DNA of 64,000 nucleotides, from the NCBI GenBank assembly GCA_049322215.1, contig JBMORU010000001.1, forward strand, positions 1,046,143-1,110,142. The letters run 5' to 3'. Below the pieces are notes generated by a model that ran no database searches, was not told where the DNA came from, and worked only from the letters and a program-made list of their open reading frames with translations. This DNA is from Patescibacteria group bacterium (GTDB lineage: Bacteria > Patescibacteriota > WWE3 > UBA101185 > UBA10185). Positions 2,169 through 61,000 of this stretch are shown here, piece after piece (position 1 is the stretch's first letter; every line of letters begins with the position of its first letter). A program made the position numbers and the translations under genes.

Positions 2169-3174
2169 GATCGCTTTCGAAATCTAAAGAAATTAAATTT
2201 GGAAACGTAACTTCTATAACCTTCTCTGCGTCGTCAAGCTTAACATATATCTTTTCTTTTTGCACGTCCTCTATGGTTCCAACCCAGCCAAAATAAGGTT
2301 TTTCGAAGACCTGTACAATCATACCCTTTTTAGGCACTTTCAAAAAAGTACGCGGTTTGTTTTTTCGCACAAGGTTTACATCAAACTTTTGAGGAACAGG
2401 CACCCTGATAAGCTCACGTTCTCCCTGAACAAAAATAAATCTATTTGAAATATCTTTTAGGGCGTTAAAAATAAATGGGGGTGTTGGTATATTTCCATGC
2501 CCAGAAAATACTCCTAAAAATAAGTTGCTTTTCTTGGCTAAGTCAAAGCCATATTTATCGGCGCCTCCGGCCAAAACACCGCCAACTCCCATAGAAATAG
2601 CCTTTTTTAGTAAATTTATGCTTGCATAATTACCTGTATAAATTATTTTTCCAAACACATTCTTAGTAAATTTCTCAAGATATTGCATTTCAAGTATGGG
2701 AGAAGGATTTGGAAAAACTATTAATTCCCCCGCAAAACTGTTATCTGTGCAGGCTGCTAAATGTAAATCTAAAGTTTGAGTTTTAAGTAAAATAGATTTT
2801 TTATCTACAATACCCGCAACTTCTCCCCAAACACCAGAGAGTAACCAATAATCTCTTTGATCTTGACGGAAAACAAGTTTATCCTTTTCTGAAACTAGAT
2901 AGCCATCAAACGGGGCTATTAAATTACCTGAACTAGAAGTACCAATAACTTCACCATTATAAAAGTAGCTGCCAATATTTTTATCTTTTTTAAATTGAAG
3001 CCCGTTAGGAACTGGCATAACTCCGTATGAAATTTTAGTCATGCCCAATTTTGTAAAGGGCTCCACTGAAACACCTATTTTGGCTACAATATCTCCGCTG
3101 CTTGGCAAAGTACGCTCAATGTATATGTTGTTCGAATAAGCTGCTTTTCGTGCCACAAGCAAACGCAAACTCAT
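2116..3174 (-). CDS. hypothetical protein (no TM; KOW-like C-terminal segment)
   Basis: 352-aa ORF immediately downstream of the PilM-like gene; no recognisable catalytic motifs. Confidence 0.4.
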   Translation of the reverse strand: MSLRLLVARKAAYSNNIYIERTLPSSGDIVAKIGVSVEPFTKLGMTKISYGVMPVPNGLQFKKDKNIGSYFYNGEVIGTSSSGNLIAPFDGYLVSEKDKLVFRQDQRDYWLLSGVWGEVAGIVDKKSILLKTQTLDLHLAACTDNSFAGELIVFPNPSPILEMQYLEKFTKNVFGKIIYTGNYASINLLKKAISMGVGGVLAGGADKYGFDLAKKSNLFLGVFSGHGNIPTPPFIFNALKDISNRFIFVQGERELIRVPVPQKFDVNLVRKNKPRTFLKVPKKGMIVQVFEKPYFGWVGTIEDVQKEKIYVKLDDAEKVIEVTFPNLISLDFESDLEEFLHLQSKEKSYDSL

Positions 3175-4211
3175 AAGTCCCCCACCCTAGAGCTTATTAC
3201 ATGCTCAAACAAACGCAATTCCTTTTCCGAATAATTTTCAATAAATGAAGCGTAGCTTTGCTTCAAACGTGTATCAATCACAAATCCCAACTCACCGCCT
3301 ATAACAAAACGATCCAATGTTCCCATAACATCGCTTTTTATAAGTACTCGAGCTTGCGCACCAACCTCTAAGGGAAATAAAAACAGATCGTTAGACCCAA
3401 TATCAACAAGTTGTGATGTTCCTAATTCTGTTTCAAATAAACACTCAACCCCACCGGGAACATTCAATAAGGTTCCAAGAGGTTTGTAGTTCACGTCTTT
3501 TATGGAGTCAAATAAAGCACTGTTGTAAGAATTTAAAAGAGCAAGTGGAGCTACTCTGTTAGCTGCATCTAAATAAAGCTCAAAAAAGCCAGCATTAGAT
3601 ATTAAGTCCAACATAAGCAAATAGGCTAAATCCCAGCGTTCGGTTGCAGCATTAAATCTATCACCAGTAAAAACTACTGGAATCTCAGGGTCTAAAACTA
3701 AACCATTAAGCTGTGAGCGAGTAGCATTGTCAAAGTCCAGTTGTTCTGCACTATTAATGGGCTTAACAAATGGATATATTGTTAAGTTGGCTAAAAAATT
3801 CGCCTCCTCAGAACGAGCGATGTCTTCTCTTGAGTCATCAGAAGTATCAGGCAACAAACTTCGTTCAATAGGTACACCCGATTCAATAACTTTATGTCTA
3901 TCAACATAAACATACTTATAACCATTTATAGAATTTAACGCCTTATCTAAGGTAATGCAGTGACTGTTAGAAATGTCACAGTGATCTTCTGGGTAACTGC
4001 ATACAAGAATTTCTAAATCTTTAGATGGAAGCCTATGCGTTTTAACTGCATGCTGAAACACCTTGTCGTAAAAGCTATTTCTATCTAAATAATTTCCGTA
4101 AATATTTGAAGAATAAATATAAGGCATACCAAAAAATTTATAGTTTAATGGGGACGAAAAATACAAAAAAGATATTTCTGATGATCCTATATGAGCAGCT
4201 AATACGGGCAT
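3171..4211 (-). CDS. actin-fold ATPase-like protein (PilM/FtsA family-like), hypothetical
   Basis: N-terminal 'LAAHIGSSEISFLYF' resembles the PilM 'vGiDiGsssikvvel' phosphate-1 motif; later 'VDIGSNDL' and 'VIGGELG' motifs. 4-nt overlap with the downstream ORF. Confidence 0.35.
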   Translation of the reverse strand: MPVLAAHIGSSEISFLYFSSPLNYKFFGMPYIYSSNIYGNYLDRNSFYDKVFQHAVKTHRLPSKDLEILVCSYPEDHCDISNSHCITLDKALNSINGYKYVYVDRHKVIESGVPIERSLLPDTSDDSREDIARSEEANFLANLTIYPFVKPINSAEQLDFDNATRSQLNGLVLDPEIPVVFTGDRFNAATERWDLAYLLMLDLISNAGFFELYLDAANRVAPLALLNSYNSALFDSIKDVNYKPLGTLLNVPGGVECLFETELGTSQLVDIGSNDLFLFPLEVGAQARVLIKSDVMGTLDRFVIGGELGFVIDTRLKQSYASFIENYSEKELRLFEHVISSRVGDL

Positions 4212-4245
4212 AAATAAATGATAACATCCTTAAATTTTATGTGAA

Positions 4246-4276
4246 ACAACAAAAAAACCCGTGGACATGCCACGGG
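4246..4276 (-). terminator. rho-independent terminator of the rpsF-ssb-rpsR operon
   Basis: Perfect 7-bp stem CCCGTGG/CCACGGG (4258-4276) with a 5-nt loop, followed on the minus strand by UUUUUUUGUUGUUU. Confidence 0.6.
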
Positions 4277-4300
4277 TTAGTTTTTCTTATAAACACTATA

Positions 4301-4546
4301 TTATATTGCGTGATGATCTGTATAAGGCAACAAGGCCATAAACCTTGATTTTTTTACTTCCCTTGATAAAGATCTTTGATGTTTACTGCAAACACCAGAA
4401 CGACTTGCAGGAATAAGCTTTCCTCTATCCGAGATAAATCTTCTTAAGACCAACACTTCTTTATAGTTTGGTTCAGTGTCATTGCTTGAAAAATAACAAG
4501 CTGTATCAGTTAGTTGTTTCTTTTTGTTTTTTGTTTTTTTTGCCAT
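4301..4546 (-). CDS. rpsR: 30S ribosomal protein S18
   Basis: 'YKEVLVLRRFISDRGKLIP...CSKHQR.L...K.SRFMALLPY' matches the S18 signature. Confidence 0.85.
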   Translation of the reverse strand: MAKKTKNKKKQLTDTACYFSSNDTEPNYKEVLVLRRFISDRGKLIPASRSGVCSKHQRSLSREVKKSRFMALLPYTDHHAI

Positions 4547-5317: not shown

Positions 5318-5445
5318 ATACCTTTTATTATACAAATTTAATTAACGTAAGCTACACCGAAAGTTCTAGTAATATTAGAACCATAAGATATTTAATATAG
5401 CGTGCAGAATAATACATGAGTACTATAAGTAATGCAAGGCTATAG

Positions 5446-12203: not shown

Positions 12204-12306
12204 TTGTTGATTGTAGGATGTGACCCATATAGGGTCAAGCCACTGTTGATGTATCTATGCTATAGGGTTATAATAGACCTCAATACAAATAGTAAGGAGA
12301 TGCATC

Positions 12307-12609
12307 ATGAACAACATAATGAGAGACAGAATCGCTGCAGAAGTGAAAAGGTTGCAAAAAGAAAAGCTAGATTTTCCACTAGAATGGCTTGATGAAATTT
12401 TTCGCCGGCTTAAACCCAACGAACAACAAGTTTTAAAGTTAGCGTACGGCACTGAAGTGATTTTAAGCAACGCTGAGGTAGCTAAAATTTCAACGCTAAA
12501 CGTCACGGCAACTCGTATAGGGCAGATAAAAAAGAACGCTTTAAAAAAATTTGCTCCGGCAATTGCAGTTCGCCTACACGATGAAAAAAAGAAAAAAGGC
12601 AAAAGCTAA
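12307..12609 (+). CDS. small sigma-70 region-4-like HTH protein
   Basis: 'NEQQVLKLAYG...LSNAEVAKISTLNVTATRIGQIKKNALKKF' resembles sigma-70 region 4; AAGGAG RBS 8 nt upstream of ATG; lysine-rich tail. Confidence 0.5.
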   Translation: MNNIMRDRIAAEVKRLQKEKLDFPLEWLDEIFRRLKPNEQQVLKLAYGTEVILSNAEVAKISTLNVTATRIGQIKKNALKKFAPAIAVRLHDEKKKKGKS

Positions 12610-30749: not shown

Positions 30750-30981
30750 CTAAGTTAAAAAAATCATAGCTTTTAACCCTTTAAATAAAGCAAAAACCTA
30801 ATTTAGTACTCAACTTTATGCTGTTATTACTAAATTTGGAGTTTTTGTTATAGGTAGAACTAAATAGTGCTTAATATAAAGGTACATGTTTGTTGCCAAT
30901 ACCCTATAGTAGGGGTATAATTAGGATATCACGTGATAGATAGTAAGACACAATTCATAGTACATAAGGAGATAAATAGTC

Positions 30982-31938
30982 ATGGCTTTCGATTTTAGTT
31001 CACAACCGTACAAAGAGTACCATTACTTGATGGCGCTTTGTTCACACTTTGGACTTAGCCAAAATGGTGGTACCGCAGCGTTGAAAAAAAGGCTTTTGGA
31101 TGAGGGCATAGACATTACGCCAATTACAGGTACAGCGTTGTATAACCACTACCAGAAGGTATGTAAAGACAATGGACTGCCTGCAACGGGAACAATGAAG
31201 CAGCTCGTGGAAAGAATTCAAAAGAAACGAGGCGCTTCCCTGGTTCCCCCAGCGGCCAATATGTCTCAAGTACCTAAGTCGCACCGCACGCCTGCACCTG
31301 CACCTACGCCAGTACCCGCAGCAAATCCAGCAACGGCTACGCCACGACCTGCGACACCTGTGACACCTGCGCGTACGCCTGTAACAGCCAGATCCATCAT
31401 TTCCGCCGGCACAAAAAAAGCGTTGAAATGGGGCTTTTTGCTGATTTGGCTTTTGATCTGCGGTGTAGGTGCCCTGTTCGCACTCGCCTTGCCCATTAGC
31501 CTGCCTCAGCTCGACATCGCCATTGTGGAAAATCCTATCCTTTTCTGGGGCGGATTGACACCAAGCATCGTGACCTTGCTGTATGCCTTCTTTGTGAAAA
31601 CAAGAATTGGCGTGGCCTTGGTAAGAATGTTTGGCAACATGTTGGTAGGTATCGGCATGTGGTGGTGGATCGGCTATGCGCTGTTTGCATTCTCGCAATA
31701 TGGCGCCAGCTTCAATATCGCCATCATCACCGGATCAACTAACGCCATCATTTTAGGCGGCGGATTAGTAGCAGGTTCAATTATGGCAGTGCTCGTATCC
31801 ATATTGTTGGCAGCTCAAAAGCGCTACATCCTAATGAGCCTCAACATGTTCTTCTTGGTAATGGCCTTTGGCACCTCAGTCGTACTCGGATGGTGGGCTA
31901 CTCCGGCAGTTGAAACATTTATCAACTTCCTCAAATAG
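30982..31938 (+). CDS. GC-rich membrane protein with two SAP-like N-terminal motifs and a Pro/Thr/Ala-rich linker
   Basis: SAP-like 'LKKRLLDEGIDIT' and 'MKQLVERIQKK'; 'PAPAPTPVPAANPATATPRPATPVTPARTPVT' linker; 5-6 TM C-terminal domain. About 50% GC versus about 33% in flanks. Confidence 0.5.
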   Translation: MAFDFSSQPYKEYHYLMALCSHFGLSQNGGTAALKKRLLDEGIDITPITGTALYNHYQKVCKDNGLPATGTMKQLVERIQKKRGASLVPPAANMSQVPKSHRTPAPAPTPVPAANPATATPRPATPVTPARTPVTARSIISAGTKKALKWGFLLIWLLICGVGALFALALPISLPQLDIAIVENPILFWGGLTPSIVTLLYAFFVKTRIGVALVRMFGNMLVGIGMWWWIGYALFAFSQYGASFNIAIITGSTNAIILGGGLVAGSIMAVLVSILLAAQKRYILMSLNMFFLVMAFGTSVVLGWWATPAVETFINFLK

Positions 31939-31948
31939 CTTACCCTAA

Positions 31949-32019
31949 CTGGAGCGTAGAGATATTAGTTTGCAACGGTAAAACGTTAAAAATTAATTCT
32001 CTACCTCCAGATTTTTTTT
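31949..32019 (+). terminator. terminator-like structured hairpin after the SAP/membrane gene
   Basis: Stem CTGGAGCGTAGAGA / TCTCTACCTCCAG flanking a structured loop, followed by TTTTTTTT (32012-32019). Confidence 0.5.
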
Positions 32020-34476: not shown

Positions 34477-34552
34477 GCCTGGATAGCTCAGCTGGTAGAG
34501 CAGCCCCCTTGTAAGGGGCAGGTCAGGAGTTCGAGTCTCCTTCCAGGCTCCA
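34477..34552 (+). tRNA. tRNA-Thr (anticodon UGU)
   Basis: Cloverleaf folded by hand: acceptor GCCTGGA/TCCAGGC, D-stem GCTC/GAGC, anticodon stem GCCCC/GGGGC with loop CTTGTAA, T-arm AGGAG-TTCGAGT-CTCCT, encoded CCA. Confidence 0.9.
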
Positions 34553-34556
34553 TTAC

Positions 34557-34642
34557 GCCGGGATACCGAAGCGGTCAAACGGAGCAGTCTGTAAAACTGT
34601 TGGCGCATGCCTTCGCAGGTTCGAATCCTGCTCCCGGCACCA
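34557..34642 (+). tRNA. tRNA-Tyr (anticodon GUA), class II with long variable arm
   Basis: Acceptor GCCGGGA/TCCCGGC, anticodon loop CTGTAAA, long variable arm, T-arm GCAGG-TTCGAAT-CCTGC, encoded CCA. Confidence 0.9.
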
Positions 34643-34689
34643 GGGAAATAGTTATATAAAAGTATGTAGCTATTTCCCTGGTTTGCTAG

Positions 34690-34764
34690 GCCTGGGTAGT
34701 TCAGAGGTAGAACGCTTCCATGGTAAGGAAGAAGTCGAGGGTTCAATTCCCTCCCCAGGCTCCA
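34690..34764 (+). tRNA. tRNA-Thr (anticodon GGU)
   Basis: Acceptor GCCTGGG/CCCAGGC, anticodon stem CTTCC/GGAAG with loop ATGGTAA, T-arm GAGGG-TTCAATT-CCCTC, encoded CCA. Confidence 0.9.
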
Positions 34765-35954: not shown

Positions 35955-36009
35955 ACCTATTAAGGCATTGACACAAACTGCTGTAAAATAAATAATGCCT
36001 AGTACGTAT

Positions 36010-36085
36010 AGGGGTGTAGCTCAGCTGGTAGAGCACTGGTCTCCAAAACCAGGTGTCGGGGGTTCAAGTCCCTCCACCCCTGCCA
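36010..36085 (+). tRNA. tRNA-Trp (anticodon CCA)
   Basis: Acceptor AGGGGTG/CACCCCT, anticodon stem CTGGT/ACCAG with loop CTCCAAA, T-arm GGGGG-TTCAAGT-CCCTC, encoded CCA. Confidence 0.9.
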
Positions 36086-36142
36086 ACAACAATCAATGCT
36101 ACCCAATTTGTCTCTCCAAAAGTAACTCTCCTAAACTATTAC

Positions 36143-36159
36143 ACTATAGGTTTACAAAA
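36143..36159 (+). repeat. copy 1 of repeated motif ACTATAGGTTTACAAAA (T7-promoter-core-like)
   Basis: Identical 17-mer at 36736-36752; 10-nt core ACTATAGGTT also at 38742 and 40097(-). Lies 2 nt before the ATG of a 26-aa ORF. Confidence 0.6.
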
Positions 36160-36160
36160 G

Positions 36161-36241
36161 ATGGCTTTGGAATGTCCATGTTCTTACGAAAGCAAGAAGT
36201 CGAAAAAATCATCCGTGTAATCACAAATTACTGGAACTAAT
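36161..36241 (+). CDS. 26-aa peptide ORF (MAFGMSMFLRKQEVEKIIRVITNYWN), speculative
   Basis: Bracketed precisely by motif copy 1 and terminator hairpin A, directly after tRNA-Trp; no RBS. Confidence 0.2.
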
Positions 36242-36246
36242 TTAGC

Positions 36247-36309
36247 AAGGAGTTGGAACTTTAAGTTGTATATAAAAAACAACTCGAGTTTTAACTCCTT
36301 ATTTTTTTC
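36247..36309 (+). terminator. terminator hairpin A (first of three homologous elements)
   Basis: AAGGAGTTGGAACTTTAAGTTG-loop-CAACTCGAGTTTTAACTCCTT then ATTTTTTTC; homologous to elements at 37638 and 39078. Confidence 0.5.
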
Positions 36310-36432
36310 AAAAAAAACAGTTTAAATAAGATGAAGCCCTAAAATCATTCATTCTACTTGCTAAACTCTAAACTTAAGTAACATTAGCTAGCTTTAAATT
36401 TACACTACAGAATTTCTATATATAATAAGGAT

Positions 36433-36675
36433 ATGTGCTTAAATAGTGGCTCTACATATGGAGTTCCCCAAGATATAGAAACTATTTCAGACTTAATACA
36501 ACTGGTTATTTTTGTTGCCAGCTTAATAGGACTTTTTGCCCCTATAACCATTCAATATCTAATGAAAAAAAAGCTGACGTTTAAGTCTATATTGCTACTA
36601 CTGACAAAAGGGTTACTAATTTGGATTATATTTGTTGTTTTAAGTAAGTTACTACTAAATACTTTGTGTATATAA
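36433..36675 (+). CDS. small hydrophobic membrane protein (2 TM), hypothetical
   Basis: 80-aa ORF, mostly hydrophobic. Confidence 0.3.
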   Translation: MCLNSGSTYGVPQDIETISDLIQLVIFVASLIGLFAPITIQYLMKKKLTFKSILLLLTKGLLIWIIFVVLSKLLLNTLCI

Positions 36676-36743
36676 CATAGGTAGTGCTTTAACCACCCAA
36701 ATGCATACAACTTAATTCAAAAAGCAATTATGAATACTATAGG

Positions 36744-36772
36744 TTTACAAAATGCCTACCAAACAGTATAAT
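36744..36772 (+). promoter_or_regulatory. sigma-70-like promoter TTTACA-N17-TATAAT embedded in motif copy 2
   Basis: TTTACA (36744-49), exact 17-nt spacer, TATAAT (36767-72); AGAGG RBS and ATG of the CPBP gene lie about 40 nt downstream. Confidence 0.45.
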
Positions 36773-36812
36773 TACAACTACAAATAAACCTACATCAAAA
36801 GAGGTAAACGAA

Positions 36813-37628
36813 ATGCGTAAACAAAAAACGTGGAAACCAACCAAATGGGATTGGCCTACGTTCCAGGAACAATGGATAAGGTTTCTATTAGCTTTCGGAG
36901 TAGTAGCTCTGATTATTCCTATAGGTAATAAGGAATTTATCTTGAAATCACTTAGTACTCCTACTGTTACAAAGCTTCTTCTAGCTATAGTTGCTGGAGT
37001 ATTAATATATCTGTTACGAAGCCCATTATATACAAAGGACTTTATTACTGGGGTTATTCAAAAGTGGGATAAAAACCCAGATTATACTCCAAAGAAAAAA
37101 CCTTTTGCTAGGTATGTACTTAAGTGCCCTGAAGAGGAACTCACACATAGATACCTGATCTTTTTTCTGATCATGACAATATGCCAAACAAATCCTGCGG
37201 AACACTGGCAACGTCTGGCAATAATGTATTTAGCAGTAGTAGTAGGAATGTACTTGCAACGCACCAATGTAAAGGTAAAACTATTTGCAGAACTTGCAGT
37301 AGAAGTCCCGGTAATAATAGGGATTAATGCTGTTCTTGCAAATACAGGTGTTCTAACTAATTCCTTTTACGTTTGGGGAATGGCTACGACAGTAACTTCG
37401 GTAAATTGTGCCCTTGATCACATAATAGCTGTAGAAAGTTCGTGGCAAAAGTACAGCAGAAACGAGCGCATTAAAACAGTATTAGGTCATTTTGCAGGAG
37501 GCATGCGCTATTCAATTATAATGTGGTTGTTTGGCTACCAAGTAATATACCCAATAGTCACTCACCTAGCGCACAATTTCACCTCAGAAGGCATAAAAAG
37601 AACCGTTTTCAACACAGAAGATTGGTAA
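36813..37628 (+). CDS. CPBP-family (CAAX protease / Abi, bacteriocin-immunity-like) intramembrane metalloprotease
   Basis: Polytopic; 'EEELTHRY' (EExxxR motif 1), 'HFAGG' region, and 'HLAHN' (HxxxN motif 3). Confidence 0.5.
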   Translation: MRKQKTWKPTKWDWPTFQEQWIRFLLAFGVVALIIPIGNKEFILKSLSTPTVTKLLLAIVAGVLIYLLRSPLYTKDFITGVIQKWDKNPDYTPKKKPFARYVLKCPEEELTHRYLIFFLIMTICQTNPAEHWQRLAIMYLAVVVGMYLQRTNVKVKLFAELAVEVPVIIGINAVLANTGVLTNSFYVWGMATTVTSVNCALDHIIAVESSWQKYSRNERIKTVLGHFAGGMRYSIIMWLFGYQVIYPIVTHLAHNFTSEGIKRTVFNTEDW

Positions 37629-37637
37629 GCAGCTAAT

Positions 37638-37690
37638 AAGGAGTTAAAATTTTGGTTATAAAAAATAGCTTAAGTTTTAACTCCTTTTTC
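37638..37690 (+). terminator. terminator hairpin B (perfect 12-bp stem AAGGAGTTAAAA/TTTTAACTCCTT plus T-run)
   Basis: Homologous to hairpins A and C; directly follows the CPBP gene stop. Confidence 0.55.
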
Positions 37691-37768
37691 TTTTAAAAAC
37701 CTAAACTAAAAAAAAAGTTGGTAGTTTGGAGTTTAGTTCCAAAATACCAACTCATGCTTAAGCTTATA

Positions 37769-37888
37769 TCACCAAACGAGAATTAAGATCCCACCAACCA
37801 TGACAAAAGGAAAAACAACAGCAACAGCTTTTGCAAGCCGAGGATGCTTCTCCAAACCAAAGGTGTGATTAATAAAGCGCATATACAT
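37769..37888 (-). CDS. 39-aa hydrophobic peptide with perfect SD (MYMRFINHTFGLEKHPRLAKAVAVVFPFVMVGGILILVW), speculative
   Basis: AAAGGAGAC 7 nt upstream of ATG; C-terminal TM helix; 42 nt downstream of the 84-aa gene on the same strand. Confidence 0.3.
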   Translation of the reverse strand: MYMRFINHTFGLEKHPRLAKAVAVVFPFVMVGGILILVW

Positions 37889-37930
37889 GTTTCGTCTCCT
37901 TTACTTGATTTTTTTAATTGTAGAACATTT

Positions 37931-38185
37931 TTACTTATACGTGTACAAAGTCTGCTTTATTGACTTAACTCGCGGGTTTTTCTTCATTATAGCTTTGAGA
38001 GCTTGCTGCACGTCGTTAATTGATGTGGGATTACTCAACTTTTTCCTAATTTCAGTTATGCTCCACGCGTGAAAAGGAGGACCCTCTGACAAAACACGTA
38101 AAACGTCGTCATATACTGCCTGTTTACGGGCTCTTCCCTTTCTTACGTCCTCCTGTACTTCTTTTATTAAGTTTAAAATCCACAT
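37931..38185 (-). CDS. small hypothetical protein, possible winged-helix DNA-binding
   Basis: 84 aa; 'AVYDDVLRVLSEGPPFHAWSITEIRKKL' resembles a wHTH recognition segment. Confidence 0.35.
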   Translation of the reverse strand: MWILNLIKEVQEDVRKGRARKQAVYDDVLRVLSEGPPFHAWSITEIRKKLSNPTSINDVQQALKAIMKKNPRVKSIKQTLYTYK

Positions 38186-38331
38186 TTAGTTATCTCCTTT
38201 TTTATTTAAAGTCTTAATAACAGTATAAACTTTTAAATGCAAATACAAAAATGCACAAAAAAAGGCTACCTAACGTTTGTAAGTTGTGTACAAACTATTA
38301 AGTAGCCTACTGTGAAAGGGATGCCTTAGTG

Positions 38332-38685
38332 TTAATTACTTGCATTCAGCTGCAAAGGATTTTGCGAATGCAGAATAATGTTAACTAACGCATCTTCTTC
38401 CTCCGGGGTCAGGTAACCTTCACATAAATTGTTGAAGGATCCGATACCCTGTTGAATGCAGAACAAATTGAGTTGGACGATAAGCTGGCTACGCTCGTCT
38501 CTTCGTGCAGGAACATCCCCATAAAGACGAGTTAAATCCAGGTTTTTCTGCAGGACTTTAAAAACCCGGACGAGTTCTTGAAAATGGGTCTTAACTGCTT
38601 CATTCAGCATTAAGCGTGCCATTCCCGTTTCATATCTGCCGTATAAATCGCCACTAGGCCAATACTTTGTTCCTAACTTTATCAT
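38332..38685 (-). CDS. hypothetical protein in GC-elevated patch
   Basis: 117-aa ORF; local GC about 44% versus about 30% in neighbours. Confidence 0.4.
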   Translation of the reverse strand: MIKLGTKYWPSGDLYGRYETGMARLMLNEAVKTHFQELVRVFKVLQKNLDLTRLYGDVPARRDERSQLIVQLNLFCIQQGIGSFNNLCEGYLTPEEEDALVNIILHSQNPLQLNASN

Positions 38686-38741
38686 GACTATCTCCTTATT
38701 TAACTGATCTGGTTATTATTTCTCAATACCACAATTATACT

Positions 38742-38751
38742 ACTATAGGTT
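38742..38751 (+). repeat. copy 3 of motif (TACTACTATAGGTTTAG variant)
   Basis: Shares TACTACTATAGGTT with copy 4 (40097-40110, minus). Confidence 0.55.
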
Positions 38752-38755
38752 TAGT

Positions 38756-39069
38756 ATGAAAAGGCCTTTCAGGAAAAACAACAAAAATCCGAAAACAACC
38801 GTGAAAAGGCAATTGCCTTAATCAGATTCATTACTGACACTATCACCGCAATTGCTCCCCAAAAGATCGACGCTCGCTGGTACGGCTCTTACAAAACACC
38901 AGGTGTTGCCGGTTATCCAAGCGTTACAGTAACTGCATATCATATACAAACGCAGCGGTTATTGGGACAGTGGACTATTAATGCCGGCGGTGACTACCCT
39001 GCACCTGAAATCTCTAAAGAGCACATTGTGCAGACTATCAATGATGCTCTGCAACAAATGAAAGTTTAA
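38756..39069 (+). pseudogene. frameshifted ORF (A5 homopolymer): MKRPFRK | (K)QQKSENNREKAIALIRF...QQMKV
   Basis: ATG at 38756 sits directly after motif copy 3 and hits a stop after 21 codons. The -1 frame is open for 104 codons to 39069 but has no start. Inserting one A in the AAAAA run at 38771-75 fuses them. GC about 48%. Confidence 0.4.
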
Positions 39070-39077
39070 CTGACCCT

Positions 39078-39136
39078 AAGGAGTTGAAGCTTAAGTTGTA
39101 AAAAAAACAACATAAGTTTTAGCTCCTTTTTTTTCT
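39078..39136 (+). terminator. terminator hairpin C
   Basis: AAGGAGTTGAAGCTTAAGTTG-loop-CAACATAAGTTTTAGCTCCTT then TTTTTTTTC; also positioned to terminate the convergent minus-strand gene ending at 39240. Confidence 0.5.
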
Positions 39137-39239
39137 TTAAAAACAACAGAACTATGAATTATTATAAATTTTCACAAAAAAAACTCTTATGTACTTACGG
39201 TTAATTCTGTAAATACATAAGAGCTATATTAGACACTAA

Positions 39240-40043
39240 CTAGACGTTAACCTCAGGACCAAAAAACACAGGCGGGTCAGCAGGTGGAAGTTCAATAAAT
39301 TCAAGAGGCATCACAAAGCCAGCTTGAATGAGTGCATATATAACCCTACCGTCCTGGCTAAGACCCTTGGCTAAAACTGTACCGTCCAAAAATGTCTTTT
39401 GCCTCAAAGTAGCTAAGGGTGCAGTTCGCCAGTCACCTCCGTATTGTGCATCCATAGAAACCCATGGCATTGAGGTAACTTCAATAATCTCAAAGATAGC
39501 TTCAATAGTCTCAGGAGTATCTTTACAAGAAACTACATTGGCAATTTCGATATTGGGAAGGTATAACACACCATCGTTGTACACAACATCGATAAAAAGC
39601 CAGTTTGGAAGTCTACCGCTTGCCCACCAGCCTAAACCAGACTGCAAATAGCGATCCACAAGATAGTCTACGTTTATGCGATTCCACTCATTGCCAAACT
39701 GATCCAAAAGATCCCAAACATCCCCCTCTACGTAATAAAATGACCCCTCATATTGACATACTTGTGATGTGTCAGACAAGGTCATTATATAGGTCTGCTG
39801 CAAGTCAAAGGATCCGTCAGGCAATTCAGGAATGTTGGAATCTTGTTCTGGCTTGACCTCAGAATTGGAATTTTCTTGCGGAGCCTCCTCAACCTCTACT
39901 TCTGGAATAGCTGTGGGATTCGCTTCTACTGCCTCAGTAACTTCTGCTAACGTACCTTGCATACTTGATTCAAGCAAAAGCACAAACCCAATAACTAAAC
40001 CCAGTGTCCCTAACAAGAGCACACGAAAAAAATTTTTATTCAC
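39240..40043 (-). CDS. secreted/N-terminally anchored hypothetical protein (GTG start)
   Basis: AAGGAGACAGAC-GTG start; N-terminal TM/signal 'VLLLGTLGLVIGFVLLL'; acidic linker; Trp-rich globular part. Confidence 0.45.
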   Translation of the reverse strand: MNKNFFRVLLLGTLGLVIGFVLLLESSMQGTLAEVTEAVEANPTAIPEVEVEEAPQENSNSEVKPEQDSNIPELPDGSFDLQQTYIMTLSDTSQVCQYEGSFYYVEGDVWDLLDQFGNEWNRINVDYLVDRYLQSGLGWWASGRLPNWLFIDVVYNDGVLYLPNIEIANVVSCKDTPETIEAIFEIIEVTSMPWVSMDAQYGGDWRTAPLATLRQKTFLDGTVLAKGLSQDGRVIYALIQAGFVMPLEFIELPPADPPVFFGPEVNV

Positions 40044-40096
40044 GTCTGTCTCCTTATTTCAGATTTGTTTGTTTTCATATTATAGCTTAAAAAATC

Positions 40097-40110
40097 TGTA
40101 TCTACAACCT
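40097..40110 (-). repeat. copy 4 of motif (TACTACTATAGGTT on minus strand), about 55 nt upstream of the 39240..40043 gene
   Basis: Reverse complement of AACCTATAGTAGTA. Confidence 0.55.
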
Positions 40111-40186
40111 ATAGTAGTAGCGTTTTGGCGCAAAATAGTTTATAATTATACAAGTGTAAAACACCAAATCTGATAAGGAGACGCAC

Positions 40187-40432
40187 ATGAGCGACGTAAA
40201 AAAACCAAACTACACAAAAGTAACGCAAGGTGAAGATATTCAAATTGACGGCATCACATATAAATTTACAGCATCCTCTGTAGAACATATGAATGCTTCA
40301 CTTGATATTCACGCAGTGACAGGTCGTTTTGCACCGCGTTTGACAGTACAAATGTATAACCCACTGACAAAACAAAATGACAATATACCTATGTCTAAAG
40401 TTGGCGAAGTACTGCTGCAGCGGCCACATTAA
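40187..40432 (+). CDS. small hypothetical protein
   Basis: 81 aa; AAGGAGA RBS upstream. Confidence 0.35.
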   Translation: MSDVKKPNYTKVTQGEDIQIDGITYKFTASSVEHMNASLDIHAVTGRFAPRLTVQMYNPLTKQNDNIPMSKVGEVLLQRPH

Positions 40433-40538
40433 GTAGTTTGTATGACCTTAGTAAAAATTGTTAAAACCGATTTTTGCTAAGGTCTTTTTTTTGTAAAAAT
40501 GATAAAATACGACAACTAAACCCTAAAGGAGACAAACA

Positions 40539-40730
40539 ATGAGTGAAGTTACACGAATAGAATTTAATTTTTTAGGCAAGCGTTGGTACTACAACGGAAA
40601 CTACAACACGTGGGTTCCCCTGTTTCACACCAAATGGTTTGTTAAGGTAAATGAAAAAGGAGAGGTATACCAATCACAACAAACCGATCCTGAAAACGGA
40701 GAAAGGCCAACCGCCTTTGAAGTTAAATAA
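40539..40730 (+). CDS. small hypothetical protein (Trp/Tyr-rich)
   Basis: 63 aa; AAGGAGA RBS; hairpin GGGTATG...CATACCC follows. Confidence 0.35.
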   Translation: MSEVTRIEFNFLGKRWYYNGNYNTWVPLFHTKWFVKVNEKGEVYQSQQTDPENGERPTAFEVK

Positions 40731-40817
40731 AAAAAGGGGTATGTCTGTTGCCTGTTATAGATAACATGCATACCCTTTAATATTCAATTAATTAAAATAA
40801 ACAGCTATACTTTTATT

Positions 40818-46286: not shown

Positions 46287-46460
46287 GTGTTAAAATTTAT
46301 TAAAGATTCGTATAGAGAATTTAAAAAGGTGCAATGGCCTTCTAGAAAGCAAAGTATTCTCTTGACTGGCTACGTTATTGGTGTTAGTTTAGTCATCGGT
46401 CTCTTTGTGACAGGAGCAGATTATTCATTTCGAGAAGCGCTTTCAGCATTTTTAAGATAA
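46287..46460 (+). CDS. secE: preprotein translocase subunit SecE (GTG start, 57 aa)
   Basis: '...FKKVQWPSRKQSILLTGYVIGVSLVIGLF...' = SecE 'KVTWP' motif plus single TM; stop abuts the nusG ATG. No ATG in frame; GTG at 46287 assumed. Confidence 0.55.
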   Translation: MLKFIKDSYREFKKVQWPSRKQSILLTGYVIGVSLVIGLFVTGADYSFREALSAFLR

Positions 46461-55071: not shown

Positions 55072-58000
55072 ATGAGTCATGACCCTGCCCAGAGAAATAA
55101 AGAAATAATTAACAACTCTATCTCCCCCAGAGCTTCTGAGGGATTATCTGTTTCTAAGGCAGCAAAAATCTTAAAAATCTCCCCTTCTACACTTCGCAGA
55201 TTAGAACAAAACGGAAAAATTAAATCTACTAGAGCTGCAAATGGTTATAGGTCTTTCAGCATTGACGAAATTAGAAAACTAAAAGTACAACTAGATAAGC
55301 AGGATTTACTAGAAAAACCAGAATTAAGAGTTTTAGAGAAACAATTAAAAACTAATAATAATATAAAACCTTCGCAAAAAAATATACCAGTTACTGAAGA
55401 AATAAAAACAGGCCAATCGTATAAACAAGTAATAAAACCCAAATACCAACTAAAAAATTTTAATAAGCTAAGTAACGCACTACAAACAGCAACAATAACC
55501 TTAATACTAGTAGTAATATTAGGGGCATTTGGACTAAAGGGAACAGACACAATCAAGTATAAAACTGTTACAAATAGCGTAAAAGGCTTACTAACTACGA
55601 CAAATACGTCGGAAAGCCTTTTGGATTCTGACAATACAGAAGACTCAGCAGTATTAGCCGAAAGAAGTCAAAATCCATTGTGGACTTTTAACATAAATGT
55701 TCCTAGTACGTTTAGACAAGATGTTCAAATAACCCAGAATTTACAAATTGATCAAAATGCAAATATAGACGGAATTGTAACGACACCTAATGTAACTTTT
55801 ACAGGTACAGGAACTATCAACCAATTAGATGCTATTGACGACATAACCGAAACCACATTGGAAAATGCTTTAGACATAAACGGTGATGTTATAGGAATAG
55901 GATTAAATAATGTGACAATAGTTGACGGTGCTATTACTGTTAACAAATTGGCTGACGTTTTGGAATACGAGGGTACGCTTAGTATTGAAGGGGAATTTTT
56001 ATTAGGAGGAGATTCTGGCAGCGAAGGTGATATATTGACATCGGGTGGCAGCGGGATTCCTCAATGGGTAGCCCCATCAGAAATTAATGCTGGCCAAGTA
56101 GATGGATTAAGTGGGGATCAATTTTTAAGATCAGACACATCCGATGAATTTACATCAGGAACTTTGTCATTATCTAACGGCACATTTCTTGATTTAGGCA
56201 CTATTGATCACACTTCCACCTCCCCACAAGGTATAAGATTGCCACAATCAACAGCTTTTACTGCACCAAGCAGTGGTGAGGGATATATAGCATGGGATAC
56301 AGCCTCCAACACGCTTGTTGTATATGATGGATCTTCATGGAGCTCAATTCAAGGCCTATTTACAAATTCAGGAGATCTGACATATCTATCAGAAACTACC
56401 GACAACTTAACTATAGGAGGAACGACATCTTTAGCTAAATTGGGAATAAGTGGAGATGCAGATGAAATTCAATTATTAGTACGAGGAAATTCAACCCAAA
56501 CAACCGACTTAGTTGTATTTGAACAAAGTGATGGAACAAATGTATTTTCAGTAAATAATAATGGAACCATAACAATACCCTCTGGACAGGATTTAGTAAT
56601 AGGTTCAATTGGATTGGGAGACACGGCTGCCTCTACTACTTCGGGAGCTAACTTAATAGGTGTTTATACAGATATATTTACAAATATATCCCCTGTAGGG
56701 TCTGATTTGCAGTCAGTATTAGAAACAATTGACTCCTCTATTGGTTCAGGATCGTCAAGATGGTCTACTACATCAGGAACACTACACCCAAACACATTAG
56801 CTGAAAACTTGGCAGTCGGTGGCACTAGTCCTACTGCTGCTCCATTTGGAATTAACGTAAGTAGCAATACTGTATATATTGGTGATGCAGTAACTGCCGG
56901 AAATACAACATTAACATTTAAATCTAACTCAGGAGCATCTACAGGAAACCTAATTTATAACACAAGTGATCAGTTTCAATTTTCGGGTGGAAATGTAGTG
57001 GTAGATGGTCAACTAATAACAGGTTCTTCAGTTATAAATCTTACAACAGCCACAGGCTACTTAGACGCCGATGCTATTCAATTACTAAACCTAGGTACAG
57101 GCTCTACGGCATCCTCATCGGGTTTAGAAGTAAGTTCGGATAGAATAGGTTTGCTGCAAGGATGTGCAAATGGCGAGGTATTAAAATGGAATGAAGCTTC
57201 GGGTCTATGGCAGTGTGCTACAGATTCTGGTGCATCAAGTGCTGTTGTTCTAGTAGAGGAAAACGATGTTTCAGTAGGCACAAATGTAGGAACTTTAGAT
57301 TTCATTAACGTGTTTTCTTTAAACGAAAGTCCTTCTGGTGAAGTAAATATAGATATAGCTGATAATGCATTAAACTTTACAGAACTTGAAAGTGCCTTAA
57401 CTTTAGATACTGATACATCTATAAACTTTTATACAGGGGCAGCCGATGCTAACTTAAGATACTATAATTCAAACGATGCTACAGAATTATTATTTATAGA
57501 CGGCAATAATGGAAGAATAGGTATAGGTAATACTTCCCCATCTGCTTTACTAGGTATAGGAAGTACAAATCAATTTACAGTAAATTCATCTGGAGCAATT
57601 ACCGCAGCAACCGGAATTACTTCAAGTGGAAATATAACTTTCAGCGGATTATCAACTGATGGCGTAGTTACTGTTTCTTCTGGATTACTAGATAGTGAAG
57701 CCCAATTAGCAATCGCTCGTGGCGGAACAAATTCTACCGCTACACCAACTGCGGGGGCTATCTCCTACGGTACAGGAACTGCTTATGGGTTTAGTACAGC
57801 AGGTACCTCAGGACAATTACTACAAAGCAACGGTACAGGTGCACCTACTTGGGTTGATTCTGATACCGTAGGTATTAACTATTGGGATCGAACAGGTACT
57901 TTAGTTACTCCTTTGACAATTACTGATAATATAGCCACATTAGGTAGCATAGGAGTTGGAACAACCAACCCTGCTGCTGCTTTATCCGTAGGCGCAACAA

Positions 58001-61000
58001 GTGAATTTAGAGTTGACTCAAACGGCAACATCACAAGAATAAACGATGTGGCATACTCATTCCCCGCTTCTCAGGCTGCTGCACCTAATTATGTGCTAAC
58101 AAATGACGGAAGCGGAAATTTAACATGGCAGTCTGTTAGCGGTGTTGGAGGTATTACAGGTTCAGGAAGTACCGGACAATTAACTTACTGGAACGCTTCA
58201 AATTCTTTAACAGGTAACTTTAATCTATTTTGGAATAACAGCAACAGTCGTTTAGGAATAGGTACTAGCGCACCAGCCACAGCCTTAGATATAAATAATG
58301 GAAACATTACGTTATCTGACAATTACTGGCTTGGTTTAGGCACAGCTGCAGGAAGAATTGAATTCGACAATCAAGCTACCGACGAAATTAACTTTTTAGG
58401 TGCTAATGTTGGTATAGGAACTTCTTCCCCATCGTCATTGCTAAGTGTGGGTGCTACAAACCAATTTACAGTAAATGGAAGTGGAGCTATTACTGCCGCA
58501 ACCGGTATAACCTCAAGTGGTAACATAACTTTCAGCGGTTTATCAACCGACGGTGTAGTTACGGTTTCATCAGGTTTGTTAGGCAGTGAAGCACAACTAG
58601 CAATCGCTCGTGGTGGAACAAACTCTACAGCTACACCAACTGCTGGTGCTATTGCTTATGGAACAGGAACTGCCTATGGATTTAGTTCGGCAGGGACTTC
58701 TGGCCAGTTACTGCAAAGTAATGGTACGGGGGCTCCAACTTGGATAAACGCAGCAAGCGTAGGCACTAACTACTGGGATAGAACGGGAACACTTGTTACT
58801 CCTCTGACAATCACTGACAACGTAGCTACACTTGGCAGCATAGGTATAGGCACCACCAATCCTGCAGCAGCACTAAGCGTAGGAGGTAGCAGCGAATTCA
58901 GAGTAGACACAAACGGCAACATTACAAGAATAAACGATGTAGCATATTCATTCCCTGCCTCACAAGCAGCCTCTGACAATTACGTTTTAACAAATGATGG
59001 AAGCGGTAACTTAACTTGGGAATCTGTTAGCGGCGTTGGGGGTTTAACAGGCTCTGGGAATACGGGACAATTAACATACTGGAATGCAGCTAACTCAATT
59101 GCTGGTAATTTTAACTTCTTTTTAGATACAACAAATAATAGATTGGGTATTGGTACTTCTGCTCCTACATCAGCACTTGACATAAATAATGGAAATATAA
59201 CACTATCTGACAATTACTGGCTTGGTTTAGGCACAGCTGCAGGAAGAATCGAATTCGATAACCAAGCCACTGATGAAATTAACTTTTTAGGAGCCAACGT
59301 TGGTATAGGAACTTCTTCTCCTTCAGCTTTGCTAAGCGTGGGTGCAGGTAGTCAATTTACAGTAAATGGTAGCGGTGCCGTTACCGCAGCAACCGGGATT
59401 ACCTCAAGCGGTAACATAACTTTCAGTGGTTTATCAACCGATGGTGTAGTAACTGTTTCGTCTGGGTTACTTGGAAGTGAAGCCCAACTTGCAACTGCTC
59501 GTGGCGGAACAAATTCTATCGCTACACCAACTGCGGGGGCTATCTCGTACGGTACAGGAACTGCCTACAACTTCAGCTCAGCAGGCACTTCAGGACAATT
59601 ACTACAAAGTAACGGTACTGGGGCACCAACTTGGATAAATTCGGCAAGTGTAGGAACAAATTACTGGGATCGTACAGGTACGCTTGTTACCCCTCTGACA
59701 ATTAGCGATGACTTAGCCTCCTTAGGCAACGTGGGCATAGGCTTAACCAACCCAATAGGAGCATTGCATGTAACCGGCGATGAAGTAAGAATTGGTGACG
59801 CAGGTACTATTAACTTTGCTACAGCTGATGGCGACTTGTACGTAGAAGATGCTTTAGAAGTAGACGGAAGCACATACTTAAGCACACTATATTTAGCAGG
59901 TACACAAGTAACATCAACTGCTGCAGAACTTAACCTACTCGACGGCAGTACCGCAGTTTTAGGCGGATTAGTATTTGGAAACGGCACATATTTAACTCAA
60001 GATGCTGCAAATATATTCTGGGATGATTCAACTAACAGACTTGGTATTGGTACAACAGGGCCTCAAGCTGCTTTATCGGTTGGCGCCACAAGTGAGTTTA
60101 GAGTTGATTCAACCGGTAATGTTACTAGAATAAACGATATTGCTTACTCGTTCCCTGCCTCACAAGCAGGCGCTTCAAATTACGTACTTACCAATGACGG
60201 AAGTGGTAACTTAACCTGGGAGTCTGTAAGTGGTGTAGGGGGCTTAACCGGCTCCGGTAGTACTGGACAAGCTACATTCTGGAACGGAACAAATGCTTTA
60301 ACAGGGAATTTCAATTATTTCTGGGATAACAATACTAATAGATTAGGCATTGGAACAAGCGCCCCACAAGCATCTTTAAGTGTTGGCAGCAGTAGTGAAT
60401 TCAGGGTCGATGCAAGTGGCAATGTAACTAGAATAAATGATGTTGTTTATTCCTTCCCCGCATCACAAGCAACTTCAGGTAACTACGTTTTAACAAATGA
60501 TGGTAGCGGCAACTTAACTTGGGAATCTGTTAGCGGTGTTGGAGGTTTAACTGGTTCTGGTAACACAGGTCAACTAACATATTGGAATGGCACTAACGCT
60601 TTAACAGGTAACTTTAATTTGTTCTGGGATACCAGTACAAACAGATTAGGTATAGGCACCTCGGCACCTCAAGCTTCTTTAAGTATAGGAAGTGCTAGTG
60701 AATTTAGAGTTGATTCAAACGGTAATGTTACAAGAATCAACGATGTAGCCTACTCTTTCCCCGCTTCGCAAGCAGCTTCTGACAATTACGTTTTAACAAA
60801 CGACGGCAGCGGTAACTTAACATGGGAATCTGTTAGCGGCGTTGGTGGAATAACCGGAGCAGGCAGCAATGGGCAGCTTACTTACTGGAACGGAGCCAAT
60901 TCACTAACAGGAAACTTTGACTTATTTTTAGATTCTAATAATAGCCGCCTAGGAATAGGCACTTCAGCACCTACTACAGCTTTAGATATAAATAATGGAA

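Follow-up and report, generated by a model that had tools for sequence, protein, structure and literature searches.

In this study, we analyzed a stretch of 64,000 nucleotides (the window) from a Patescibacteria group bacterium, with special attention to a short array of genes beside its tRNA-Trp gene, in which a repeated motif (copies M1 to M4) and three similar hairpins (HpA, HpB, and HpC) stand around unrelated genes. The source organism is a candidate phyla radiation (CPR) bacterium of the WWE3/Katanobacteria type, and its NusG is 63-77% identical to those of WWE3-like metagenome-assembled genomes in the GTDB set. The left landmark of the variable region is the tRNA-Trp gene (CCA; 36010-36085, + strand), which was identified by both ARAGORN and Rfam and is preceded on the same strand by the promoter TTGACA-N17-AATAAT (35968-35996; promoter scan). 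On the other side, secE is located at 46287, with nusG, rplK, and rplA next in order. A previous interpretation made from the letters of this DNA (hereafter, the sequence-only reading) proposed an insertion of ~10 kb between tRNA-Trp and secE. This proposal holds for approximately 4.7 kb, which we call the islet (36.09-40.8 kb), whereas the rest toward secE corresponds to the conserved FolD-M50-secE-nusG synteny of WWE3 genomes. The islet genes from m271 to h63 have a GC content of 38-44%, versus 30-34% in the neighboring genes.

The first reading frame of the islet, putatively coding, has 22 codons, MSMFLRKQEVEKIIRVITNYWN (36172-36240, + strand; or 19 amino acids), between M1 and HpA, where a 26-amino-acid open reading frame (ORF) had been proposed. 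It is followed on the + strand by h80 (80 amino acids, two hydrophobic segments, 30% GC; 36433-36675) and by m271, which encodes a multi-pass membrane protein of 271 amino acids (36813-37628). The next three genes are on the minus strand: h39 (39 amino acids, hydrophobic; 37769-37888), wh84 (84 amino acids, with weak winged-helix hints at E ~0.007; 37931-38185), and h117 (38332-38685), whose product contains a helical-bundle domain. A gene with 44% GC follows on the + strand (38756-39069). As the sequence-only reading had observed for this GC-rich ORF, it is frameshifted, the ATG at 38756 and the open frame of 104 codons up to 39069 being in different frames, and it is probably a pseudogene. 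The minus-strand gene s267 (39240-40043; 43% GC) encodes 267 amino acids with an N-terminal hydrophobic signal or anchor. Finally, h81 (40187-40432) and h63 (40539-40730), both on the + strand and each in a single-gene unit of its own, constitute the right end of the GC-richer islet.

Most of this cargo has no recognizable relatives. Among 5.8 billion proteins, m271, s267, and wh84 match only themselves or a strain variant; the islet proteins have no meaningful match in Pfam, PHROG, PADLOC, or NCBIfam; no homologues of the cargo were found in WWE3 relatives by tblastn or blastp; and, among other samples, the islet proteins were recovered only from the source sample and from one strain contig of 2.4 kb. 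The identification of m271 as a CPBP gene could not be sustained: it has no match in Pfam (at E <= 0.01), NCBIfam, or PADLOC, and only two suggestive strings, EELTHR (EExxxR-like) and HLAHN (HxxxN-like), which are 140 residues apart. Its AF2 model, obtained without an alignment, has a pLDDT of 44 and is unusable. The only islet cargo with detectable relatives in other genomes is the domain of ~80 residues in h117, which recurs fused to nSTAND1, CHAT, TPR, GAF, Cas_NE0113, and TCAD9/EAD7 proteins. Fusion architectures of this type are typical of conflict systems; the fold itself is a generic helical bundle.

The repeated motif reported by the sequence-only reading is present. The exact 12-mer ACTATAGGTTTA occurs three times in the 64 kb, always on the + strand and within 2.6 kb (36143, 36736, and 38742), against an expected count of 0.02, and none of 100 shuffled sequences reaches three. 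A fourth copy, M4, lies on the minus strand (40104-40115) and matches 10 of the 12 bases. The identity of M1 with M2 extends over 17 nt (36143-36159 and 36736-36752), and M3 and M4 share a 14-mer in inverted orientation (TACTACTATAGGTT; 38738-38751 and, reversed, 40106-40119). The core of the motif is an asymmetric 8-mer, ACTATAGG or its complement CCTATAGT, that abuts a -35 hexamer, which is followed by N17 and then TATAAT. Indeed, the end of the motif overlaps the start of the -35 hexamer in both M2 and M4, and a perfect TATAAT is found 17 nt further on. M2 reads ACTATAGG-TTTACA-N17-TATAAT on the + strand (box 36736-36743, -35 36744-36749, -10 36767-36772), which confirms the promoter noticed at this position by the sequence-only reading; M4 reads ACTATAGG-TTGTAG-N17-TATAAT on the minus strand (40079-40115; box 40115-40108, -35 40107-40102, -10 40084-40079). 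Each of them is followed by a leader of 28-33 nt, a Shine-Dalgarno sequence, and a start codon, that of m271 and that of s267, respectively. Both copies thus present the features of a sigma-70-type promoter, namely -35 and -10 elements spaced 16-18 nt apart, a leader, and a Shine-Dalgarno sequence.

The idea of a promoter motif at each module is therefore valid for M2 and M4, which are complete. It does not hold for M1 and M3, as neither is followed by a -10 at a distance of 16-18 nt. M1 (36143-36159, + strand), in the 3' trailer of tRNA-Trp, consists of the box ACTATAGG and TTTACA and can be described as a half promoter; M3 (38738-38753, + strand) contains ACTATAGGTTTA. An ATG occurs within a few bases after M1 and after forward M3. 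Read in reverse, M3 occupies the spacer of the h117 promoter (38734-38762, minus strand; -35 TTTTCA 38762-38757, N17, -10 TATAAT 38739-38734; promoter scan), where it gives CCTATAGT-AG-TATAAT. A weak fifth copy, TTACACTACAGAATTTC at 36402, overlaps the h80 promoter (TTTACA-N16-TATAAT, 36399-36426, + strand; promoter scan). The identity of M1 to M3 over 12 bases amounts to the 8-mer plus the TTTA of a near-consensus -35, and it would require little beyond functional constraint.

The three hairpins are homologous, as had been claimed. HpA (36247-36300, to 36309 with its T-run), HpB (37638-37686, to 37696), and HpC (39078-39128, to 39140) all lie on the + strand; their mutual identity is 73-84% over 43-75 nt and extends through the T-run and the A-run behind it. 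Their folding energies range from -21.3 to -25.2 kcal/mol, with z scores of -5.1 to -6.2 relative to shuffled sequences. They begin 6, 9, and 8 nt past the + strand stop codons at 36240, 37628, and 39069, and the stem is directly followed by 7-9 T (HpA has 15+6 bp and T7). All 15 consensus pairs are preserved in the three hairpins; six of them vary on one side only, via G-U, and these changes favor the + strand RNA. In the inner stem, one double change can be seen by eye, G-C in HpA and HpC versus A-U in HpB. The ends of the family are AAGGAGTT...AACTCCTT. The stable G/C-anchored stem with its U-tract, located 3' of the unit and in the same orientation, is what defines an intrinsic terminator, and we infer that HpA, HpB, and HpC act as intrinsic (Rho-independent) terminators in the + strand transcript, HpB being that of m271 and HpC standing after the frameshifted ORF. 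Since HpA is the only terminator-like structure after tRNA-Trp, with no other between the two, it most likely ends the tRNA-Trp transcript.

Other terminators of the islet are unrelated in sequence, and for this reason we consider that the resemblance among HpA, HpB, and HpC is one of paralogy and not of a generic terminator style. They include, on the minus strand, a hairpin with T9 that would serve h39 and wh84 (37708-37752; -20.9 kcal/mol, z -4.6), a hairpin with a T-run between h117 and wh84 that would serve h117 (38257-38310; recognized by reading the sequence), and a hairpin with T8 assigned to s267 (39184-39223; found as a self-complementary BLAST match). The terminators of h81 and h63 are at 40444-40484 and 40735-40778. 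A covariance model built from the three hairpins gives them 77-91 bits, and the next forward-strand match reaches at most 25.5 bits in 452 kb, made up of the remainder of the window and of loci from WWE3 (16) and from other CPR bacteria (11); the model finds no copy in 8 kb more of the host genome. The pattern AAGGAGTT-N25-45-AGTTTTARCTCCTT has no match in IMG/VR, and its 19 single matches in JGI metagenomes, mostly without an extended stem or T-run, include none of the hairpin family. At gathering score, Rfam recognizes tRNAs only; at a relaxed E-value over the islet, it adds two sub-threshold, terminator-like chance matches. HpA, HpB, and HpC would thus constitute a three-member local terminator family. 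The 5' arms of these hairpins (36247-36254, 37638-37645, and 39078-39085) begin with AAGGAG, a perfect Shine-Dalgarno-like sequence, and their 3' arms end with the anti-Shine-Dalgarno-like CTCCTT. There is no start codon at a usable distance after AAGGAG, and the two sequences are probably just the G/C anchor of the stem.

The box is not restricted to the islet. In the same genome, the promoter of rpsF-ssb-rpsR (5408-5445, minus strand), directly after the ychF stop codon, consists of the box ACTATAGC and TTGCAT-N17-TATTAT. The same layout is found at six unrelated promoters in other WWE3-like genomes and at one in another CPR genome. In RAAC2_WWE3_1 (L007), it precedes a single gene inserted between M50 and secE; in L014, it lies 8 nt past tRNA-Trp; in L009, it comes directly after a terminator inside the tRNA-Trp islet of that genome; and L008, L018, and L028 contain one box-type promoter each. 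Those of L007, L008, L009, L014, and L028 are associated with single-gene, GC-rich units. The L007 unit (CP006914, 9015-9730) encodes a 196-amino-acid protein with a signal-like N-terminus and has a GC-rich terminator; its promoter and the one at 4083 in L009 share GGGTT..AG.CT-TATAATGCACAG, and the genes that follow them are different.

This association is supported statistically. In the window and 16 WWE3 loci taken together, CTATAG ranks first of the 4,096 possible hexamers immediately 5' of promoter-like sites, and its spacing to an exact TATAAT has a peak at 24 nt. Masking the islet leaves seven such CTATAG sites, compared with an average of 0.47 sites for the 180 hexamers of equal composition and three for the runner-up; the WWE3 loci alone contribute six sites against 0.47 expected. 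The exact 8-mer ACTATAGG or CCTATAGT is present at eight of the nine sites, and each orientation of the 8-mer ranks first among 1,680 8-mers of the same composition. A second position class, with CCTATAGT located 2-5 nt 5' of the -10, has five sites against ~0.7 expected; this is a weaker signal, visible at the 8-mer level, since at the hexamer level CTATAG 3-6 nt before the -10 is indistinguishable from same-composition controls. The h117 promoter (with M3 backwards), a promoter at 25810, and that of a 318-amino-acid gene at 30904 exemplify this class. We also considered that the box could be an independent -10 (TATAGT or TACTAT) and rejected this option, as no usable -35 exists 17 nt upstream at any site. 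A search of the literature on CPR bacteria yielded no account of a CTATAG or ACTATAGG box, and what it did return were T7 primer sequences.

Given the independent promoter sites and the enrichment statistics, the motif core reads as a recurrent, lineage-wide WWE3 promoter element and not as a cassette boundary. The sequence-only reading, which favored the boundary, had itself named a generic promoter sequence as the contrary outcome, and such a sequence, recurring across WWE3 and at the rpsF operon, is what we found.

Two further genes in the window carry the box, or its hexamer CTATAG, in their promoters. The 318-amino-acid gene mentioned above (30982-31938, within 30895-32010) has 49% GC in a genome of 36% GC, and its product has an N-terminus that is faintly SAP-like, a linker rich in Pro and Ala, and a C-terminal half that is hydrophobic. 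The promoter TTGCCA-N17-TATAAT, which has CCTATAGT in its spacer (30903-30910), and a terminator with a long stem give this gene the appearance of a further single-gene unit like those of the islet. The other gene, between recR and dnaX and on the opposite strand, encodes a stand-alone Sigma70 region-4 protein of 100 amino acids (12307-12609; Pfam 26 bits, cut-off 24.1). Its own promoter (within 12255-12609) reads CTATAG-GGT-TATAAT, and the protein is a candidate reader of the box.

The genomic setting of the islet was compared among relatives. FolD(-)-M50(-) is located directly 5' of secE-nusG in nearly all the WWE3-like relatives examined, with the exception of L009, where M50 is present and a FolD match is absent; a K+ channel is also carried by two WWE3-like relatives with FolD-M50-secE-nusG. 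In the more distant CPR loci L020 and L023, tRNA-Trp is 200-230 nt upstream of secE. Because the FolD-M50 block is conserved in WWE3 and the close arrangement of tRNA-Trp and secE is found in more distant CPR, their separation is a lineage trait that is ancestral to the group. A comparison of synteny, as the sequence-only reading had suggested, thus supports the variability of the gap between tRNA-Trp and FolD in relatives and removes the distance between tRNA-Trp and secE as a sign of insertion. The variable part is the stretch from tRNA-Trp to FolD only, where L008, L009, and L014 contain 2.8-7.9 kb of other genes, none of them related to the islet genes or to one another. The string LDREFM, which seemed to be common to genes of L009 and L014, fell below significance and was discarded. 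The best explanation is that the islet is strain- or species-specific and lies within a hypervariable tRNA-Trp/FolD gap of WWE3 genomes.

A second strain provides direct evidence of recombination in this gap. A contig of 2.4 kb from another sample (L308) matches 36245-38649 with the same gene order, and its divergence is 0.3% up to 37996 and 8.6% from 37997 on. The diverged part (37997-38649) takes in h117, the spacer, and the region of wh84 that encodes the N-terminus. A core contig of 5.4 kb from the same sample as L308 differs by only 0.17%, against 7-10% for h117 between the two strains; therefore, the islet is a mosaic between strains. The ratio of nonsynonymous to synonymous codon changes is 9:6 in wh84 and 11:10 in h117. 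The two strains do not differ in HpA, HpB, or the M2 motif, and the one nearby difference, at 36758, is in the promoter spacer.

The islet of L009, which also follows tRNA-Trp (1126-4500), contains GC-rich small ORFs, an AbrB/PIN-like pair recognized by reading the sequence, and the box-type promoter at 4083. Two terminators in this gap are 83% identical (3274-3310 and 4041-4076), as are two promoter/leader stretches at a level of 73% (1238-1278 and 3678-3718), and the small genes around them are unrelated. Because L009 shows the same style in the same gap, local regulatory DNA seems to be re-used habitually at this hotspot. In L008 (771-2996), a partial copy of tRNA-Thr(UGU), 73 nt long and 99% identical (2924-2996), and the intact gene (875-949) flank ~2 kb of genes without Pfam matches; this is an att-like duplication without a recognizable integrase, and three 33-nt tandem repeats are located just 5' of tRNA-Thr.

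In the part of the host genome that was searched (~72 kb of 1.11 Mb, that is, the window and 8 kb beyond it), nothing appears to point to a gene-capture machine. No recombinase, transposase, or integrase is present among the Pfam-annotated called genes in ~70 kb (~1-57 kb of the window and the 8 kb beyond), including the cognate integrase that the sequence-only reading had proposed to look for. The last 25 nt of tRNA-Trp have no second copy at up to three mismatches and no BLAST repeat. The attC core consensus (R'' RYYYAAC, R' GTTRRRY) is absent from the hairpins. The islet has no blastn match in phage and plasmid records, and the 10 proteins scanned against PHROG, eight of them from the islet, gave no match. 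In IMG/VR, the 14- and 15-mers of the motif have scattered single matches at about the chance rate and one unrelated 15-nt tandem array, with no multi-copy phage. Moreover, the modules of the islet point both ways, each with its own promoter. The notion of a modular acquisition or expression system can thus be kept as regards autonomous expression units and is not borne out as regards capture, no recombinase, att, or attC having been found in the ~70 kb. Elsewhere in the window, tRNA-Thr, tRNA-Tyr, and tRNA-Thr (34477-34764; ARAGORN, Rfam) lie to the left of tRNA-Trp, and the right end (57500-64000) is made up of tandem 891-nt units that are 60-89% identical, with 303-nt sub-units at 60.09-61.0 kb. 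These units are part of a giant repetitive ORF that runs past the end of the window, and a Logan contig from the same sample appears to break there.

On the whole, our favored reading, with a probability of approximately 0.6, is that the islet brings together, at a hotspot prone to recombination, autonomous transcription units resembling morons, which use a promoter module typical of WWE3 and a terminator present in three copies. According to this explanation, about eight autonomous and mostly single-gene units would lie between tRNA-Trp and the FolD-M50-secE-nusG block, in agreement with the modules of motif, gene, and hairpin with unrelated cargo by tRNA-Trp that the sequence-only reading had described; the variable location and the deviating GC content also support that reading. 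The repeated motif would be the upstream half of a promoter common in the lineage, with the 8-mer box against the -35 of a sigma-70-type promoter; M2 would drive m271, M4 would drive s267, and reversed M3 would form part of the spacer of the h117 promoter. M1 and forward M3 would be incomplete or decayed promoters, the gene after M3 being frameshifted. HpA, HpB, and HpC would end the transcripts of tRNA-Trp, m271, and the frameshifted gene, respectively. The similarity of the signals would be due partly to functional constraint (the box and the -35) and partly to local copying or recombination of regulatory DNA (the terminators), and a dedicated mechanism of cassette capture would not be needed.

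It is important to consider several points that weigh against this explanation. Its weakest point is the status of M1 and forward M3 as decayed promoters: both keep the box and the -35-like TTTA exactly and yet have no -10, which a purely functional promoter reading leaves unexplained. The 17-mer of M1/M2 and the 14-mer of M3/M4 slightly exceed the consensus of the box, and this leaves room for a role as recombination sites. The box statistics come from 7-9 sites in ~0.3 Mb, and the loci of the relatives are all centered on nusG. Given the portion of the genome covered, dispersed copies of the hairpin elsewhere are possible. Finally, the promoter and terminator activities are deduced from sequence alone, and the way in which the terminator copies arose is likewise our deduction.

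Among the alternatives, a regulatory one stands closest to our explanation. The ACTATAGG sites may be operators of a single transcription factor, either encoded in the islet, such as wh84, or conserved in WWE3, such as the Sigma70 region-4 protein, and the array would then be a small regulon. All four copies overlap parts of core promoters (the -35 of m271 and s267, and the h117 spacer), the two positions of the sites are ~21 nt apart, the one before the -10 is enriched for CCTATAGT, and a fixed asymmetric 8-mer in both orientations suits a bound protein; the winged-helix hints in wh84 and the CTATAG in the promoter of the region-4 gene agree with this idea. However, the second position class is not above controls at the hexamer level, and an islet-encoded regulator cannot be the general reader of the box, because the box occurs in species without wh84 and 5' of rpsF. 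What remains overlaps our own explanation, as it concerns the reader of the box, for which there is a candidate only, rather than the nature of the array, and we find the regulon rather doubtful. A role of the motif, the hairpins, or both as cassette recombination sites, whether integron-like, through the duplicated 17-nt core of M1 and M2, or as the borders of an invertible segment between M3 and M4, is unlikely in our view. The homology does stop sharply at the ends of short elements around unrelated cargo; the direct 17-mers of M1 and M2 bracket 576 bp, and the inverted 14-mers of M3 and M4, which span promoter parts, bracket ~1.35 kb; the hairpins have conserved ends and a variable center, as attC sites do; and the hotspot adjoins tRNA genes, with the tRNA-Thr duplicate of L008 around its Pfam-less genes and a breakpoint inside the islet in L308. 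Against this stand the absence of tyrosine or serine recombinases and transposases among the Pfam-annotated genes of ~70 kb, the lack of the RYYYAAC...GTTRRRY consensus together with a T-run on every hairpin, modules that carry their own promoters in both orientations, a motif core that the lineage-wide box accounts for even at rpsF, the lack of related hairpins in IMG/VR and JGI metagenomes, and the same order in the second strain over 36245-38649.

The hairpins could also belong to a genome-wide family of palindromes of the REP/BIME or MITE type that double as terminators and have three members in the window. The homology extends over the whole unit of 55-75 nt, T-run and A-run included, far beyond what a terminator needs; nevertheless, all copies lie within 2.9 kb, with none in the other ~69 kb of the genome or in ~390 kb of relatives, there is no target-site duplication, and the copies are co-oriented directly after stop codons, which makes such a family improbable, to about the same degree as recombination sites. 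Least probable of all, with hardly any weight, is a phage-related alternative, in which a phage-type single-subunit RNA polymerase would recognize the motif as its promoter and the islet would be the remnant of a phage carrying transcription signals of its own. (C/T)ACTATAGG does correspond to positions -7 to +2 of T7/K11/SP6-type promoters, M1 is identical to CACTATAGG over nine bases, an ATG comes at once after M1 and M3, and the cargo is GC-richer and without relatives. But the defining positions -17 to -8 are not conserved among the copies, in M2 and M4 the motif takes the place of a -35 flank and a perfect TATAAT comes 17 nt later, rpsF and genes of other species also have this box before them, the annotated genes include no single-subunit polymerase, the proteins scanned have no PHROG match, the islet has no similarity to phage records, and the matches in IMG/VR are scattered, single, and chance-like. 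We treat the nine bases as a coincidence.

Returning to the moron-like units, the array itself appears to be ordinary biology in an unusual organism, and the box, on statistical evidence, may be the part of specialist interest. We know of no experimental work on the promoters of WWE3/Katanobacteria, and of very little for CPR bacteria overall. We tentatively suggest, as a possibility that we hold at well under even odds, that ACTATAGG/CCTATAGT is an undescribed core-promoter element of Katanobacteria/WWE3, and perhaps of neighboring CPR, that its reader is either RNA polymerase itself or a conserved small factor, for which the stand-alone sigma region-4 protein would be an example, and that genes without relatives elsewhere, whether recently acquired or recently born, gain expression by means of a module of box and -35 plus a copied terminator. 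If this were true, the gap after tRNA-Trp would be a visible workshop for gene domestication in tiny genomes. An 8-mer against the -35, located on a ribosomal-protein operon and on many lineage-specific genes, offers a testable handle on transcription in an uncultivated group, and knowledge of the box would improve the prediction of promoters and operons in WWE3 genomes. The islet also indicates that very small genomes still maintain a hotspot of fast-turning, mostly membrane or secreted proteins without relatives, kept as insulated single-gene units, in which allelic recombination between strains is directly evidenced. It further illustrates that repeated boundary-like motifs around unrelated genes can be ordinary transcription signals of a lineage and not the apparatus of a mobile element.

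With respect to known systems, the islet resembles integron cassettes in that an imperfect palindrome, conserved at its ends and variable in its center, stands after each of a series of unrelated small ORFs. It differs from them in that no IntI, attI, or Pc was found in the DNA searched, in the lack of R''/R' cores, in the T-run after every hairpin, and in its own promoters in both orientations. In integrative islands that target tRNA genes, the 3' end of the tRNA recurs at the distal border and an integrase is present, and neither feature was found for tRNA-Trp in the DNA searched. REP/BIME, Correia elements, and RUP are sequence-related repeated palindromes that can terminate transcription downstream of genes. 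HpA, HpB, and HpC are likewise sequence-related, terminator-capable hairpins 3' of genes, unlike these repeats in being only three, local, and co-oriented, without target-site duplication and with none dispersed in the DNA searched. The core of T7-group promoters, CACTATAGG, shares eight bases with M2 to M4, in addition to the nine of M1; the copies show no conservation, however, in the region that confers specificity upstream of this core, they lie in a canonical sigma-70 context, and the annotated genes include no polymerase of phage type. The proximal subsite of UP elements and the sites of class II activators (centered near -41.5) lie just 5' of the -35. Similarly, the box occupies approximately positions -43 to -36, at a constant distance from the -35 and -10, in strong-looking promoters that include a ribosomal-protein operon; in contrast to those sites, it is a G/C-containing asymmetric 8-mer and not an A-tract or a dyad of 16-22 bp, it occurs in both orientations, and it is also found 2-5 nt 5' of the -10. 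Finally, phage morons, reportedly described by Juhala et al. (2000) and Hendrix et al. (2000), are autonomous promoter-gene-terminator units. The islet differs from them in lying in a chromosomal hotspot of a CPR bacterium, with no prophage context or phage gene, and in the paralogy of its three terminators; as in morons, it consists of single genes with their own sigma-70-type promoter and intrinsic terminator, of deviating composition and with unrelated cargo, placed between conserved genes.

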